From NCBI GenBank assembly GCA_036397395.1, contig DASWIZ010000007.1, positions 1 through 50,702 on the forward strand: 50,702 bases of DNA. The letters run 5' to 3'. The notes beneath the pieces were generated by a model. It saw only the letters and a program-made list of their open reading frames with translations, did not search any database and was not told the origin of the DNA. The stretch comes from Minisyncoccota bacterium. Its GTDB lineage: Bacteria > Patescibacteriota > Minisyncoccia > Minisyncoccales > UBA10102. Position 1 is the first letter of the stretch. The number at the start of each line of letters is the position of its first letter. This document shows positions 3,497 through 43,833 of the stretch, piece by piece. A program made the position numbers and the translations under genes.

Positions 3497-4180
3497 TTAT
3501 TTCCAAGCTACGCGCTCTTGAAGGTCCTGGCGCTGCTGGTCCAAAGCTTGCTGGCCCTGCGGCTCTTGTTGTGGAGTATTCGGTGAAACAGGAGCGGCGC
3601 CTGGCGCTTTTCTTCTATCTCTGGAAGTAACGCGCCGTACCAGCACGAAAATCGCCAGCACCGCGAGAATCAGCACGGTTACCAGTTCCGGAGCCCCTAA
3701 ATTCCCCATAGCGTTTCGGATCCCGGCAAAAAATCCCCGGTCTTCGTTATCATCGCTTGATCCCACAATAGGCGCCGGCAACTCATCTAATTCATTGGAA
3801 ACCTCGGCTTGCGCGACAGGAGCTGACGCCGCTTCCTGAATAACCGTACTTTCACCGGTTTCTATCGCGACAGGAGGCAAAGAAGCAACACCCGACCCTT
3901 GCGCGGCAACAAGCGCTTCTACCTGCCGCTGTAGGGCCAGTGCCTGCTGTTCTAAGACATACTTGCTTACCCGCAGCGATAACCGGTTTACTTCAGCTTC
4001 AATTTCAACTAACTGCTGGGAAATCGCTTGCAACACAACCGCTTGCTCTTCCACAGAAACTGAATCTACTGAAACTTGCACACCGCCCTCCTCCATGCTT
4101 TGGGCAAAAGCGCTTGTCCCAGTTACCAAACTGGCAACAAGAGCCAGGCTAAAAATTCCTAAAAACATTCGTTTTTCCAT
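3497..4180 (-). CDS. secreted coiled-coil-like protein with C-proximal TM anchor
   Basis: Signal peptide MFLGIFSLALVASLVTGTSAFA, an Ala/Gln/Glu/Val-rich heptad-like segment, the TM helix LVTVLILAVLAIFVLV, and a basic Pro/Gln tail. No family recognised. It sits last in the SipW/TasA-like gene string. Confidence 0.55.
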   Translation of the reverse strand: MEKRMFLGIFSLALVASLVTGTSAFAQSMEEGGVQVSVDSVSVEEQAVVLQAISQQLVEIEAEVNRLSLRVSKYVLEQQALALQRQVEALVAAQGSGVASLPPVAIETGESTVIQEAASAPVAQAEVSNELDELPAPIVGSSDDNEDRGFFAGIRNAMGNLGAPELVTVLILAVLAIFVLVRRVTSRDRRKAPGAAPVSPNTPQQEPQGQQALDQQRQDLQERVAWK

Positions 4181-31624: not shown

Positions 31625-31631
31625 ACATCCA

Positions 31632-31652
31632 GGATACCCCCCAGGGGTATCC
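31632..31652. promoter_or_regulatory. CsoR-type operator (GGATACCCC-cca-GGGGTATCC)
   Basis: 9-bp inverted repeat with a 3-nt spacer, 8 nt upstream of the csoR ATG. It resembles the GC-rich ATACC...GGTAT CsoR boxes known from Firmicutes and Actinobacteria. Confidence 0.65.
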
Positions 31653-31656
31653 CCTG

Positions 31657-32553
31657 TCAACCCCCCTTGTCCACCCCTGGGGTGGACAAGGGTTCTTTAG
31701 TCAGTTCGGCTGCCGCAATAAATGCGATACCCCAAACAATAGCCGCAAGGCTCCAAACAAGACCAATGCTCGATTCAGCGTTTGGCAATACTATCGAAGC
31801 TGTGCCGAGAAAAATCGGAAGAAATCCAGCAACCCACGCCGCCAGCCGCCAGCCGCGAGGCCTAAAACTCGCCAAGAGACCCACTAGGAGGATAATAAAA
31901 CTGAAAGCGGCCATGTTGCGATAGTGGCCTTGGGCGGCATGCTCTTGATCTTCATGTTCGTCGTTAGCGCCCATATCTTGCGATAGTTCCTGATTGTCTG
32001 CTGGATTACCACCGTGCACGGCAGGTCCTTGGTGGTCAATGTCAATTCCAATGGTAATGCCCTCGCCCCCGGTCTGCAGGTTAATATTTGTGGCTGCGAA
32101 CATAAACAAAGGCGCAACTGCGATAACAACCAACGTGAGCAATACTTTATTTACTTTCGCAGTACGAATCCAGTTAAACAAGCCAAGCCCCGCCGGATGC
32201 AGAATTGTTGCGATAAGCGTCAATCCGCCAAAAATAATAAAGAGCGGCTGCGGAACCCAGTTATTTGTGAGAGCGGCGGTCGCAATCATTGCAACCCAAA
32301 CAACTAGCGCTATCAGCTGACCTGCAAAATTTTCCTTGGGCTTGAAAAGCTGGCTGGCAAGTCCCGCTGCGGCCGTCGCAATAACGAGCGCAAACACAAG
32401 TTCGTGAATAAGATTGTGAGTATCTCCTGTGTAGATAAAATCGAAATGTCCCATAGCAGACATCCAGTTGCCGGGCAAAAACATTAGCACATTGATTACC
32501 CCAAGAAATCCTAAATATGCCAGCACAACAAGCGAGAACGCGAAATGTTTCAT
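31657..32553 (-). CDS. polytopic membrane protein with His/Asp/Glu-rich loop
   Basis: About 8 TM helices and the loop DIDHQGPAVHGGNPADNQELSQDMGANDEHEDQEHAAQGHY. The last 10 codons (PLSTPGVDKG) are encoded by REP2 copy 1. Confidence 0.6.
   Translation of the reverse strand: MKHFAFSLVVLAYLGFLGVINVLMFLPGNWMSAMGHFDFIYTGDTHNLIHELVFALVIATAAAGLASQLFKPKENFAGQLIALVVWVAMIATAALTNNWVPQPLFIIFGGLTLIATILHPAGLGLFNWIRTAKVNKVLLTLVVIAVAPLFMFAATNINLQTGGEGITIGIDIDHQGPAVHGGNPADNQELSQDMGANDEHEDQEHAAQGHYRNMAAFSFIILLVGLLASFRPRGWRLAAWVAGFLPIFLGTASIVLPNAESSIGLVWSLAAIVWGIAFIAAAELTKEPLSTPGVDKGG
31664..31692. repeat. REP2 palindrome, copy 1 (CCCTTGTCCACCCC-t-GGGGTGGACAAGGG)
   Basis: Perfect 14+1+14 palindrome. The same core is at 32878-32908 and 33549-33594. 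Confidence 0.85.
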
Positions 32554-32810: not shown

Positions 32811-32871
32811 ACAAGTTAGAAAAGTATGACTTAAGTATAGCAACCCCCAACTGGCACTGTCAAGTTCCCTC

Positions 32872-32908
32872 GTCCACCCCCTTGTCCACCCCTGGGGTGG
32901 ACAAGGGG
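32872..32908. repeat. REP2 palindrome, copy 2, with a duplicated left half-site
   Basis: Perfect 15+1+15 palindrome at 32878-32908, preceded by the extra half-site GTCCACCCCC (32872-32881). Confidence 0.85.
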
Positions 32909-32933
32909 AAAAAAGACATGATATACTCTAAAC

Positions 32934-33555
32934 ATGCAACGAAAAGACGTGCTCACTACCGACAACATCTACCACATAATGAGCAAAAGTATTGCCGGCT
33001 ATTCTATTTTCAACTCGGATATGGAATATAAACGAATGCTGCAAATACTTCGCTTCTTTTCCTATGCAGGGAACCCTTTGAAATTCTCTCGGTTTATGAC
33101 ATCCCCTCTTGTCCAAAAGCAAGGATTTGAACAAGCAGTAAGGGAGTCAACGGAAGAAAGCGACAAAATTGAAACAACTGCGCGACAACGGCATCTCTCT
33201 TTATGCCAGCAACTTCCTCAACACCTACGCTCGATATTTTAATACGAAACATAACCGCAAAGGACATCTATGGGCAGACCGCTTTAAGAATGTTCCCATA
33301 GAATCAGATGAACAGCTTTTGCACCTTAGCAGGTACATTCATCTTAATCCCGTAAGTGCTGGTTTGGTAAACGATGCTGGCAAATGGAAATATTCATCGT
33401 ACGCTGAATACATAACGCCCGAGCTAATCGCGTACCCTCTCTGCGACTTTCGCGATTTGATTAAAGAATCCCCTAAAAACTACCGTGTCTTTGTTAGTGA
33501 TCGTGCGGAGTACCAACGAAAGCTTGCCAAAATCAAGAAACTCGCAATAGTGTAA
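32934..33555 (+). pseudogene. Y1/HUH (IS200/RAYT-like) transposase pseudogene, frameshifted and lacking the HUH motif
   Basis: The N-terminal ORF (NIYHIMSKSIAGYSIF) and the C-terminal ORF (LKQLRDNGISLYASNFLNTYARYFN ... GHLWADRFK ... SRYIHLNPVSAGLV ... WKYSSY) are in different frames. The expected segment around the MPNHxHL box, present in the paralog 43114..43833, is missing. Confidence 0.65.
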
Positions 33556-33594
33556 ACCCCTGTCCACCCCAGGGGTGGACACGGGGTTTACACT
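33549..33594. repeat. REP2 palindrome, copy 3 (extended, inverted orientation)
   Basis: AGTGTAAACCCCTGTCCACCCC-a-GGGGTGGACA(c)GGGGTTTACACT: 22 bp with one bulged C. It overlaps the stop codons of both convergent genes. Confidence 0.8.
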
Positions 33595-35084
33595 CCGCAG
33601 CTGGCGCCGCCTTTTTGCTCGGGCATAAGATTTGGGATTTTTGCCACTTCTGCCTGAACGTTACGGCTCCCGGTGGCGCTGGAAAACTCTTTGCCCATTA
33701 CGAGTTTTGCGTCAACATTCTGCCAATCGATGTTCTCCACGGCTTTCAGATACAAAGCTGTTTGGATGTAGTTGTGAGGAAACCAGAATGAGTTGAATGC
33801 AAGAGCCTCACGATATAGTTCGTTTTCGCTCAATCCTTGCGAGGCGCCAAGTTGCAGAAGCCCAAGCAGAGCCGACCCGTGATTACAATCTTGAAAAAAC
33901 GTTGAGTTGTTGCAGCATGGCCGGTAGGTGTTTTGCGCAACCTTTGTTACAAGCGCCTCTTGCTCGGGCGTAAGCTCCACAATATCGAACTTGTTGAAAT
34001 ACGCGCCTCCGTTTTCTTCTCTGCCCAAGTTCCAACCGCCAGTCGAGGCAAAATTGAACAGCGATTTGCCCTGAACAGGGCTTTCTGTGTTTGATGACAT
34101 GTAATTTGCAAGTCCTAAGGGCCACATAAGATTTACGTAGTAGTTCGCGTTTTCTCGCGTAAGAAGTATCGGCGTTGCAGACGGCGCGTCAAGAATGTTT
34201 TCTAACTCCGCGGGAAGGCCGCCGCGATCCTGGTAAATCGCCAGAAATTTATCGCGGTCAATCACGCCGTTCTGCGCAAGTCGTATCACGCTGTCGCCAA
34301 GCGCGATCTTGCTCTGAAAACCATTTTCCGGCAGGACTTTTGCCACCACTTCGTCGAACAATGCATTGCCTGTTGCTGAAACATTTGTGCTATAGAGCGT
34401 ATTGTCTCCGGGGTTTAGTATGCTGCTTTGGCTCAAAACTTTGGCGATAATCGGCTCTGCTTTCAACATATCCCAACTAAACGCGGATAAAACCAAGGTT
34501 ACCGCCAACAATCCGGCAAGCCAAGGCCAATCAGCCTTTTTGAAAGAATGGTCTTTGGGCGCGGGACACACGCCGTTTTCGCAATCGGCCCTAAGCTTTT
34601 TTAAATCCCTTTTCGTAAGCCAGATCGGCAGGGCCAGCAACCCGAACGAAAGCGCTTTGAGCTCAAGCCCGCCAAGCGGAAAAGCGGCAAGCCCTCCGGC
34701 GATTCCGATTGCGGAAAGAAGTGTTGAGCCGCACACAGGACAAGCGGATGCTCCAATGCCCACTAATGACCCTAGCCCGGTTCCGCTCTGTATTTTGAGT
34801 TTGGGAAAACCAAATTTTCTCCAACGATACACGAGAAGCGGAATGTTTATACCAAATAGGGCAATCGCCCCAAGCGTTAAGATTACATACGGCCAGAAGT
34901 AAAAAGGCGTGCTGTATGTGTTGGTAATGACATTGGTAATTGCCGAATCAAGAAGAAGTATGCGGTACAGTACAAGGAAAAACGCCAGCGACGAAGCTAA
35001 ACCGATCAAACCGTAAAATAGCTTGGTGGAGACACTACTCCAGTCGATCGTATCGTTATGTTCTTGTTCAATTGTTTTAACCAT
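33588..35084 (-). CDS. membrane protein with CPxCG-containing TM domain and Cys-rich extracytoplasmic domain
   Basis: About 5 TM helices including GASACPVCGSTLLSAIG. The C-terminal domain contains ELTPEQEALV ... RPCCNNSTFFQDCNHG, which is paralogous to a segment of 35094..35705. Confidence 0.6.
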   Translation of the reverse strand: MVKTIEQEHNDTIDWSSVSTKLFYGLIGLASSLAFFLVLYRILLLDSAITNVITNTYSTPFYFWPYVILTLGAIALFGINIPLLVYRWRKFGFPKLKIQSGTGLGSLVGIGASACPVCGSTLLSAIGIAGGLAAFPLGGLELKALSFGLLALPIWLTKRDLKKLRADCENGVCPAPKDHSFKKADWPWLAGLLAVTLVLSAFSWDMLKAEPIIAKVLSQSSILNPGDNTLYSTNVSATGNALFDEVVAKVLPENGFQSKIALGDSVIRLAQNGVIDRDKFLAIYQDRGGLPAELENILDAPSATPILLTRENANYYVNLMWPLGLANYMSSNTESPVQGKSLFNFASTGGWNLGREENGGAYFNKFDIVELTPEQEALVTKVAQNTYRPCCNNSTFFQDCNHGSALLGLLQLGASQGLSENELYREALAFNSFWFPHNYIQTALYLKAVENIDWQNVDAKLVMGKEFSSATGSRNVQAEVAKIPNLMPEQKGGASCGV

Positions 35085-43113: not shown

Positions 43114-43833
43114 TTACTCAAGCATTAAATGCTCAATGGTGTTTATTTTTCGGGTTCGTAAAGAATTCTCGACAAATTCTTCGTATTTTGCCCGGTTCGG
43201 AAAAAGACTATGCGCGACACCCTTATCGATAATGGGTGATTCTCTTATTCCTAAGTACTCTTGTTGGGTGCCCCACGGATATGCTTCTGCAAATTGCATT
43301 ATACCTTGTATATTCTTCACGCCTTCCTCTTTTAAATTTGGTTCGATAAATTCTGCTGGATTTATCACATTAACATAAACAAGAAGATTTTGCAGGTATT
43401 CATCTGTATCTACCTGCACTACCTTGAACGGGCCTTGAAACAAGCTGCCTACTCGTTCGTACTTTTTATTAAAGTACATCGTAAAGCCCGTACCAAGCTT
43501 GTGCATAAACTTTGTAATGCCGCCTTCTACGAGCTCTTCAAGAATAAGATGATAATGGTTCGGCATCAAACAATCTGCCATAATGCGCACAAGAGAAGTT
43601 TCTTCTTTACTATTTTTCTCTAAAAACTCTTTAAGGATTCTAAAGTTCATTTTCCCGCGGTGTTCATGCTCCAACTTCCAAAGAAGGTTAAACGGACTCT
43701 TTTCTCTGTTAAACAAAAGTAAAGCCTGAAGAAATCGCCACCGGTCCGCATCGCCAAGAAAAATGTCTCGTTTTTCAACGCCTCGGTTATAGACGTGGTA
43801 GATGTAATTAGGGGCGAATTGAACCTTTCTCAT
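43114..43833 (-). CDS. Y1/HUH transposase, REP-associated tyrosine transposase (RAYT)-like
   Basis: YIYHVYNRGVEKRDIF, LMPNHYHLIL (HUH), GSLFQGPFK, and LLVYVNVINP (Tyr helix). 239 aa; it appears intact. Confidence 0.8.
   Translation of the reverse strand: MRKVQFAPNYIYHVYNRGVEKRDIFLGDADRWRFLQALLLFNREKSPFNLLWKLEHEHRGKMNFRILKEFLEKNSKEETSLVRIMADCLMPNHYHLILEELVEGGITKFMHKLGTGFTMYFNKKYERVGSLFQGPFKVVQVDTDEYLQNLLVYVNVINPAEFIEPNLKEEGVKNIQGIMQFAEAYPWGTQQEYLGIRESPIIDKGVAHSLFPNRAKYEEFVENSLRTRKINTIEHLMLE

Follow-up and report, generated by a model that had tools for sequence, protein, structure and literature searches.

The question raised by positions 32872-33593 of the stretch studied here was what is represented by a transposase gene that is broken into two reading frames and is enclosed on both sides by copies of one palindrome. 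The stretch (hereafter the window, 50,702 nt) was all of contig C7 in the genome G000, which consisted of 49 contigs (857,675 bp, 46.5% G+C, 95% complete) and belongs to a bacterium of the Candidate Phyla Radiation (CPR)/Patescibacteria from soil metagenomes. The locus is probably a unit of the REPtron type, in which a single-copy and domesticated gene similar to the tyrosine transposases associated with repetitive extragenic palindromes (REP-associated tyrosine transposases, RAYT) is bracketed by its cognate palindrome, here named REP2, and in which the enzyme was recently disabled. The comparison set consisted of 41 related genomes, the relatives being of 0.3-1.1 Mb.

The window was found to contain three copies of the REP2 core GTCCACCCC-N-GGGGTGGAC (31669-31687, 32884-32902, and 33562-33580), whereas no match was obtained in 100 shuffles of the window. 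The 9-mer half-site GTCCACCCC was found seven times against an expectation of 0.3, including an extra copy at 32872-32880. As single-stranded DNA, the three copies were predicted to fold into hairpins of 13-21 bp with 3-nt loops (-15.6 to -23 kcal/mol, z = -4.2 to -7.9). Two of them were found to flank the transposase gene, the left one ending 25 nt upstream of its ATG, and the central bases of the two flanks were complementary (Table 1). A flanking perfect palindrome with complementary centres and a duplicated half-site on one side had been described in the initial annotation, and each of these was recovered; the inversion of the flanks as such relies on one central base together with the outer arms, which is weak evidence for it. 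The half-site at 32872-32880 was taken as a strain-specific duplication because another soil run (X4) was found to be 11 nt shorter than the window at 32864-32877.

Genome-wide, REP2 was found in 12 copies with an identical 21-nt core TGTCCACCCC-W-GGGGTGGACA and in one degenerate copy (C34:15302), spread over 10 contigs, so that a restriction to the three sites of the window fails; no copies with 1-2 mismatches were found in the search of G000. In a de novo count with 8-nt arms, REP2 was the commonest palindrome of the genome, followed by the palindrome of a paralog at 43 kb of the window (REP1) with nine copies. The central base of the perfect copies was A in seven and T in five, as is expected for a symmetric element inserted either way round. 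Beyond the core, the arms were found to run on with 0-3 variable bases followed by CCCC/GGGG, and partial tandem duplications of one arm were present at several copies (C25, C9:11550, C6, C34, and window 32872-32883). The copies in G000 were singlets and not REPIN doublets.

Between the flanking copies, two overlapping open reading frames (ORFs) were found in different frames (32934..33242 and 33169..33555). The joined fragments (78 + 128 residues) were found to match more than 2,000 homologs, of which the closest full-length ones contained 223 amino acids (aa), 17 more than the 206 aa of the joined sequence. In 40 homologs the motifs M-P-T-H-x-H and R-Y-x-H-x-N were invariant, the latter holding the catalytic tyrosine, which in the SRYIHLNP motif of the window copy was located at 33334-33336. 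The intact homologs were above the Pfam Y1_Tnp cut-off (31-32 bits against 23), and the two window fragments searched separately gave no Pfam match. The sole NCBIfam match of the gene was REP_Tyr_transpos (NF047646), to which the C-terminal window fragment matched partially. The best solved structure for the family profile was TnpA-REP of E. coli (4ER8, E 3.4e-6), ahead of the TnpA of ISDra2, and the AlphaFold model of the intact ortholog P0001 (predicted local distance difference test, pLDDT, 93.8) was found by Foldseek to match 4ER8 best (E 5e-7, template modelling score, TM, 0.67 on target), followed by the TnpA of IS608 and ISDra2 at about 1e-3. A phmmer search of P0001 against the PDB gave no match. 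On sequence and model, the assignment of the gene to the RAYT-like transposases of the Y1/HUH (histidine-hydrophobic-histidine) type is supported. It was present in a single copy in G000, where tblastn gave one locus of the subfamily and three other matches, all of them paralogs at 30-40% identity.

The palindrome was found to follow the gene across genomes. Intact orthologs (57-71% identity) were found in G004 and G014, one copy in each, and the motif CACCCC-N-GGGGTG was counted 13 times in G000, 12 times in G004 and twice in G014, and at most once elsewhere. The genomes with a repeated motif were exactly those with an ortholog at E <= 1e-59, the reversed control pattern was found in none of the 41 related genomes, and the same-genus genome G001 contained neither the ortholog nor the motif. 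In G014 (L002), the gene was bracketed by CCTTACACCCC-S-GGGGTGTAAGG, and in G004 (L003), where the contig covers the downstream side alone, it was followed by CTTCGCACCCC-G-GGGGTGCGAAG. Six more homologs from different metagenomes (L027-L032, 44-63% identity) each had a lineage-specific palindrome on both sides at a distance of up to about 60 nt, with the apex ACACCCC-N-GGGGTGT in four and CCAC-(7-nt loop with CGTAG)-GTGG in the other two. Lineage-specific palindromes were thus present at all nine homologous loci examined (at L003 on the downstream side), with the CACCCC-N-GGGGTG apex common to seven, and extra outer half-sites recurred at L002, L003, and L030. REP2 was found in dispersed copies whose presence tracked that of the gene, and the pairing and co-evolution of repeat and transposase is supported by these sequence comparisons, in line with the lineage-specific co-evolution that had been suggested from the window: the core was repeated in just three of the 41 genomes, those with the ortholog.

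In G004, the palindrome often occurred as doublets 23-31 nt apart (e.g., C1:6-45, C1:12842-12879, and C24:18210-18245), which contained complementary centres in three of four cases and were REPIN-like or similar to bacterial interspersed mosaic elements (BIME); this arrangement had no counterpart for REP2 in G000.

The window copy of the gene was found to lack exactly 17 codons (IAYCLMPTHIHLV), corresponding to the block L-x-Q-x-I-A-Y-C-L-M-P-T-H-x-H-L-x at the boundary of ESDK and LKQLRDNGIS in the alignment of homologs. To the relative L021 (88% nucleotide identity in the C-terminal part) the window was colinear but for one 50-nt gap; the missing 50 nt (ATAGTTC...CACCTCGT) encode IVQIIAYCLMPTHIHLV, which includes the HUH-box HxH, and have AT at both borders. 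L021 is a 656-bp ENA contig whose ends are poor (a stop as early as its first 15 nt, and a tail of poly-C), and its use was limited to the HUH region and to the C-terminal part; it was not taken as proof of an end-to-end intact gene. A Logan contig of X4 was found to contain 23 nt matching up to 33169, followed by 48 extra nt and by 78 nt matching from 33168, and L021 and X4, two related strains from other samples, both keep the 50 bp. The residues that the window lacks (about 79-95) correspond in the P0001 model to strand 80-87 and to the greater part of strand 91-98, both of them central in the fold, and include both His of the HUH box. A Y1 HUH fold with its HUH box and Tyr was found in the intact orthologs and not in the window copy, and the window enzyme is dead because 17 codons with the HUH box are gone and the frame is shifted. 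The earlier description of a transposase split into two frames, lacking its HUH segment and resuming at LKQLRDNGIS, was borne out by the homologs, and the lesion was defined exactly by the alignment to L021, X4, and the 223-aa homologs. The term decayed, which had been applied to the gene, holds for its inactivation and not for a general decay, in place of which a single recent 50-bp deletion was found.

Both fragments were open apart from the lesion, and the C-terminal 128 codons compared with L021 had 0.043 nonsynonymous substitutions per site (dN) and 0.559 synonymous ones (dS), with dN/dS 0.076. Most of the divergence therefore arose under purifying selection, which makes the deletion a recent one, provided that selection no longer acts on the fragment. 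The open and conserved remainder of the gene, together with the identical 21-nt master sequence in 12 of the 13 REP2 copies, points to a recent lesion. A joint in X4 that goes back 630 nt (33506 to 32877) was considered as a circle junction and was rejected in favour of the mis-placement of a repeat; it was found in one contig, with a 32-nt side at <95% likeness ending in the repeated REP2 core.

Some observations weigh against a REPtron-like unit. The NF047646 scores were 62.5-63.8 bits for the orthologs and 45.7 for the joined window sequence, below the cut-off of 80. The feet of REP2 were CCCC(T/TT)GTCC and not the canonical 5' GT[AG]G, and GTGG was found only within the stem near the apex, where the orthologous palindromes contained GTGT or GTGC. 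The copy number of about 13 is low for a REP family and far below that of the classical ones, and mobilisation of REP2 by the enzyme is deduced from their association only. The conserved C-terminal frame could mean residual function instead of a recent loss, and an intact minority allele may be present in the source sample, in which the support for the deletion consisted of assembled contigs at about 7x. The gene neighbourhoods of the orthologous units differed in every genome examined, as would likewise be expected if the unit itself were mobile.

An autonomous element of the IS200/IS605 type, now or recently mobile, of which the solo REP2 copies would be miniature derivatives or footprints, would account for these unrelated neighbourhoods, for the fold and Pfam family in common with the IS200/IS605 TnpA, and for the patchy distribution, with a same-genus genome containing neither gene nor motif. 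Such an element is nevertheless improbable: several near-identical whole elements with distinct left and right subterminal hairpins were not found, the gene being single-copy in G000 and present once each in G004 and G014; the flanks were complete palindromes with complementary centres and not distinct ends; the closest structure and profile were those of TnpA-REP and not of an insertion-sequence TnpA; and for each copy of the gene there were more than 10 solo palindromes.

The conservation of the C-terminal part also bears on whether the 128-aa C-terminal (or the 102-aa N-terminal) ORF is still made and selected, e.g., as a catalytically inert REP2-binding protein. The low dN/dS despite a dS of 0.56, the lack of further stops in both fragments, and the source annotation, in which the 128-aa ORF is called a gene (P0006), would agree with this. 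It is given little credence here: a stable domain is unlikely because the deletion takes two core beta-strands, the C-terminal ORF, for which no promoter of its own was evident, would need to start at a TTG within the upstream frame, and a deletion of very recent date would give a low dN/dS just as well, as the two branches are not distinguished in the comparison.

It was also considered that the gene is split only in the assembly or in a minority allele, the real transposase being intact with its HUH box. The run X1 (95% of the words of the region) is probably the source sample, and its evidence, like that of X4, consisted of Logan contigs, which drop rare variants; the coverage of about 7x, the contigs as the sole basis in this run, and the presence of the 50 bp in relatives leave room for such an error. 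An independently assembled X1 contig (447 nt, depth 7.5) was, however, found to cover 32901-33347 with no difference from the window and carries the deletion, since it does not differ across the junction; the same junction was given by two different assemblers, no alternative contig across the site was found in X1, and a clean loss of 50 bp with 2-nt microhomology and no local repeat is untypical of a de Bruijn error. An artefact is accordingly regarded as unlikely.

In a REPtron-like unit, as known for TnpA-REP of E. coli and TnpA of IS608, the intact enzyme would bind the REP2 hairpin on single-stranded DNA and would cleave and rejoin beside it by means of the metal bound at the HUH box and of the Tyr in the RYIHLNP helix. 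By analogy, it would have spread REP2 to about a dozen sites of G000, including in-frame coding positions. With the enzyme of this strain killed by the 50-bp deletion, REP2 would now be an orphan and immobile population.

Table 1. Positions of the palindromes, gene parts, lesion, and promoter-like site of the REP2 locus in the window
Feature	Position	Strand	Description
Solo REP2	31664..31692		29-nt palindrome, centre T, -15.6 kcal/mol
Tandem duplication of GTCCACCCCCTT	32872..32883	+	12 nt; makes the extra outer half-site beside the left REP2
Left flanking REP2	32878..32908		31-nt perfect palindrome, centre T at 32893, -17.5 kcal/mol, z = -5.0
RAYT promoter-like site	32898..32927	+	TGGACA-18 nt-TG-a-TATACT, 10/12 matches, TG present
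RAYT N-terminal part	32934..33167	+	78 codons (MQRK...ESDK); past the junction out of register to the stop at 33240-33242
Deletion junction	33167..33169	+	50 bp of relatives gone, 2-nt AT microhomology, frameshift
RAYT C-terminal part	33169..33555	+	128 codons (LKQLRDNGIS...KKLAIV*), +1 frame; catalytic-Tyr motif SRYIHLNP kept
Right flanking REP2	33550..33593		44 nt, 21 bp, bulge at 33582, centre A at 33571, -23 kcal/mol, z = -7.6

Two of the REP2 copies in the window were also located in or next to promoter-like sites. The -35-like hexamer of the promoter-like site of the gene (Table 1) was the right arm of the left REP2, and its -10 box ended 6 nt before the ATG, which suggests, on the sequence, that the RAYT mRNA is leaderless with the palindrome in the -35 position. 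A TATACT box just upstream of the ATG was also present in the homologs L029 and L030, and autoregulation through binding of the enzyme at REP2 would be conceivable. A divergent promoter on the minus strand (TTGACA-18-TG-TATACT, extended -10) serves an AbrB/MazE-like gene, so that REP2 and its half-site were located between and within two divergent near-consensus promoters (32834-32927). The solo REP2 was located 4 nt upstream of the -35 box of csoR, followed at a distance of 12 nt by the single-copy palindrome GGATACCCC-CCA-GGGGTATCC (31632-31652), which lay between the TTGACA -35 and the TATCCT -10 boxes (31631-31660, minus strand) upstream of the gene for this CsoR-family repressor. The latter palindrome was considered as another REP and rejected on its single copy and its position; for the same reasons it was assigned as an operator in a classic autoregulated layout.

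That REP2 itself is a set of host regulatory sites (operators of a CsoR-like or other repressor) or terminators with the transposase adjacent by accident is very improbable, since its resemblance (CCACCCC-N-GGGGTGG) to the G/C-rich CsoR-type operators, the closeness of one copy to the likely csoR operator, the terminator-like score of 31664-31692 on the plus strand, and the T-run after the C9:1062 copy stand against a motif that strictly co-occurs with the RAYT ortholog, that brackets the gene with lineage-specific outer arms at every locus examined, that is in some copies within coding sequences and in most without a T-tail, and against a csoR operator that is itself single-copy.

Genome-wide, two REP2 copies flank the gene, about eight were intergenic, and three were found to overlap coding sequences (CDS) in frame. 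The membrane-protein ORF 31657..32553 on the minus strand owes its final 10-11 codons (PLSTPGVDKGG) to the solo copy of the window, in agreement with the initial annotation, in which 10 had been given. Homologs of this protein (10, at 61-72% identity) were absent from 40 relatives and were found only in a larger protein database; they stop 2-13 residues past a conserved AE-T-K/R and do not share the PLSTPGVDKGG tail. At C29:9298-9344, REP2 was found to add 11 residues (LPLSTPGVDRG) to a cytidylyltransferase-like protein in comparison with orthologs from other genera, and at C9:11540-11585 it fills the loop joining domains 1 and 2 in a TldD/PmbA-like protein, where four residues are gained net. 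A clean insertion into the TldD-like gene was considered and rejected, as the orthologs differ by just these four residues net in the loop. The encoded peptides vary by frame and orientation (PLSTPGVDRGG and PCPPQGWTGG). Rickettsia palindromic elements (RPE) likewise insert inside coding genes, the REP2 element (about 30 nt) being much shorter than these.

In the outer arms of the right flanking REP2 (GTGTAA/TTACAC), two convergent genes, the RAYT gene and a 498-aa ORF (33588..35084), were each found to have their final codon and stop, and with GTG-TAA on both strands the RAYT and the 498-aa Cys-rich protein both end Val-stop in one palindrome. In the relative L021, the RAYT gene was found to end with GAATAA (GAA-TAA) and not with GTG-TAA. 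The sequences suggest that the right palindrome was extended by a templated change from an end such as the GAA-TAA of the relative. A REP2-free version of the C22:37434 site was sought in the same-genus genome G001, where neither the limits of the insertion nor its target site could be determined. The counterpart of this region, located upstream of the gene for the ribosome-recycling factor (G001:C46:262-1172, L036), contained an unrelated 240-aa ORF instead.

The tblastn search gave four RAYT-like loci in G000 at 30-43% identity, the broken copy and three intact paralogs (C7:43114-43833, C17:2858-3583, and C43:6194-6898), each with its own flanking palindrome, and the families contained 12, 11, 7, and 4 copies at <=2 mismatches. 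The claim of two RAYT paralogs in the window, each with its own palindrome, held for the pairing and fell short in number, since the genome holds four. The paralog at 43114..43833, which matches Pfam Y1_Tnp, does carry LMPNHYHLIL as claimed and was corrected to the minus strand. The C17 paralog was found to contain its own flanking palindrome AGCAGGGAC-T-GTCCCCGCT within its CDS (C17:3392-3422), where, in the part that follows the N-terminal strand and precedes the HUH box, it reads LAKAGTVPAFGE, and two extra tandem half-sites were found upstream of this gene (3640-3675). RAYT-like genes were present in 26 of the 41 relatives, with up to six in each, none of them above the curated NCBIfam cut-off.

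The proposal that the four commonest palindromes of G000 are the four RAYT-linked ones was rejected, as it holds for the top two alone (REP2 and REP1). The C17 and C43 families had three exact copies each, and several unrelated palindromes with 8-mer arms had four. Recurrent palindromes without a RAYT link were found across contigs C1, C5, C11, C18, C21, C45, and C48. They included the hairpins CCCCGACG and CTCCGACG with 3-4-nt loops (four copies each) and the loop-less 16-nt palindromes AACCGCGA/TCGCGGTT and TCCGCCAG/CTGGCGGA (four copies each, including window 36820 and 14414).

Among the known systems, the REPtron of E. coli, formed by TnpA-REP (RayT) and REP/BIME (PMC3333891, PMC3479197; 4ER8), was found to be alike in its single-copy Y1/HUH gene between inverted copies of a dispersed hairpin palindrome. 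The protein family here differs in its length of 223 aa, in its N-terminal insert and C-terminal helices, and in its score below the NCBIfam RAYT cut-off; REP2 differs in being symmetric with a 1-nt centre, without a GT[AG]G foot and in about 13 copies rather than hundreds, and the HUH box is deleted here. Several divergent RAYTs, each with its own palindromes, are known from Pseudomonas fluorescens SBW25 and Stenotrophomonas (RAYT/REPIN; PMC3116915, PMC6006769, PMC3686654), to which the four pairs of G000 are alike, whereas the host here is a 0.86-Mb CPR/Patescibacteria bacterium and REP2 occurs as singlets, with doublets in the relative G004. The frameshifted RAYT of Neisseria gonorrhoeae with its decaying REPINs (bioRxiv 10.1101/2021.07.10.451892) is alike in that the transposase is frame-disrupted and the repeats remain; unlike there, REP2 is not yet decaying (12 of 13 copies equal the master), the lesion is a 50-bp loss of the catalytic motif, and a close strain keeps the intact gene.

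RAYT-like genes with non-GTAG inverted repeats have been described as TIRYT/TIRtron (Di Nocera et al. 2013, PMC3733652) and among the atypical REP subclasses of Quentin (PMC6006769). The TIRtron motif GGGGWSAS resembles the REP2 arm GGGGTGGAC, which differs by one inserted base, and each REP2 flank is a complete palindrome and not a single terminal inverted repeat (TIR), although some TIRs are self-complementary and form small repeat families (Di Nocera et al., PMC3733652). REPs inside tnpA-REP and other genes (PMC6006769, PMC3733652) are matched by the in-frame REP2 copies in three genes and by the C17 palindrome, a palindrome inside its own CDS being known for TnpA-REP subclass 2.4 (PMC6006769).

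It is already established that RAYTs are flanked by REPs, that one genome may contain several pairs, that REPs occur within genes, and that TIRtron variants lack GTAG (PMC3333891, PMC6006769, PMC3733652), as is an own REP family for each RAYT (PMC6006769). The system is otherwise an ordinary one of a known type, to which are added the exact lesion and its recency, the comparative pairing of gene and repeat, and the roles of the repeat in coding sequences and as part of a promoter. A full-text literature search gave no paper in which RAYT is linked to the Candidate Phyla Radiation, and the RAYT/REP principle is extended here to the ultra-small CPR/Patescibacteria genomes, one of which maintains four such systems in 0.86 Mb. 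For annotation, the finding accounts for two hypothetical ORFs (one pseudogene), for odd C-terminal and loop peptides (PLSTPGVD-K/R-GG and PCPPQGWTGG) in unrelated proteins, and for strong hairpins that might otherwise be read as terminators or operators. The broken copy, the close strain with an intact gene, and the uniform repeats together provide a dated starting point for repeat decay after the loss of the enzyme.

It is possible, though doubtful, that the 223-aa CPR clade represents a distinct RAYT subclass and that its palindromes are co-opted as building blocks in sub-megabase genomes. The foot-less symmetric palindromes may be recognised through the conserved apical core, which persisted among homologs sharing 44-70% identity, with a basal stem that drifts from lineage to lineage. 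The -35 box of the promoter of the enzyme itself, the insertions in frame into loops and tails of housekeeping genes, and the stops of the convergent genes may be examples of such co-option. If this is true, the two strains that differ by the 50 bp would serve as a natural knockout in which REP turnover could be measured for an uncultivated lineage.

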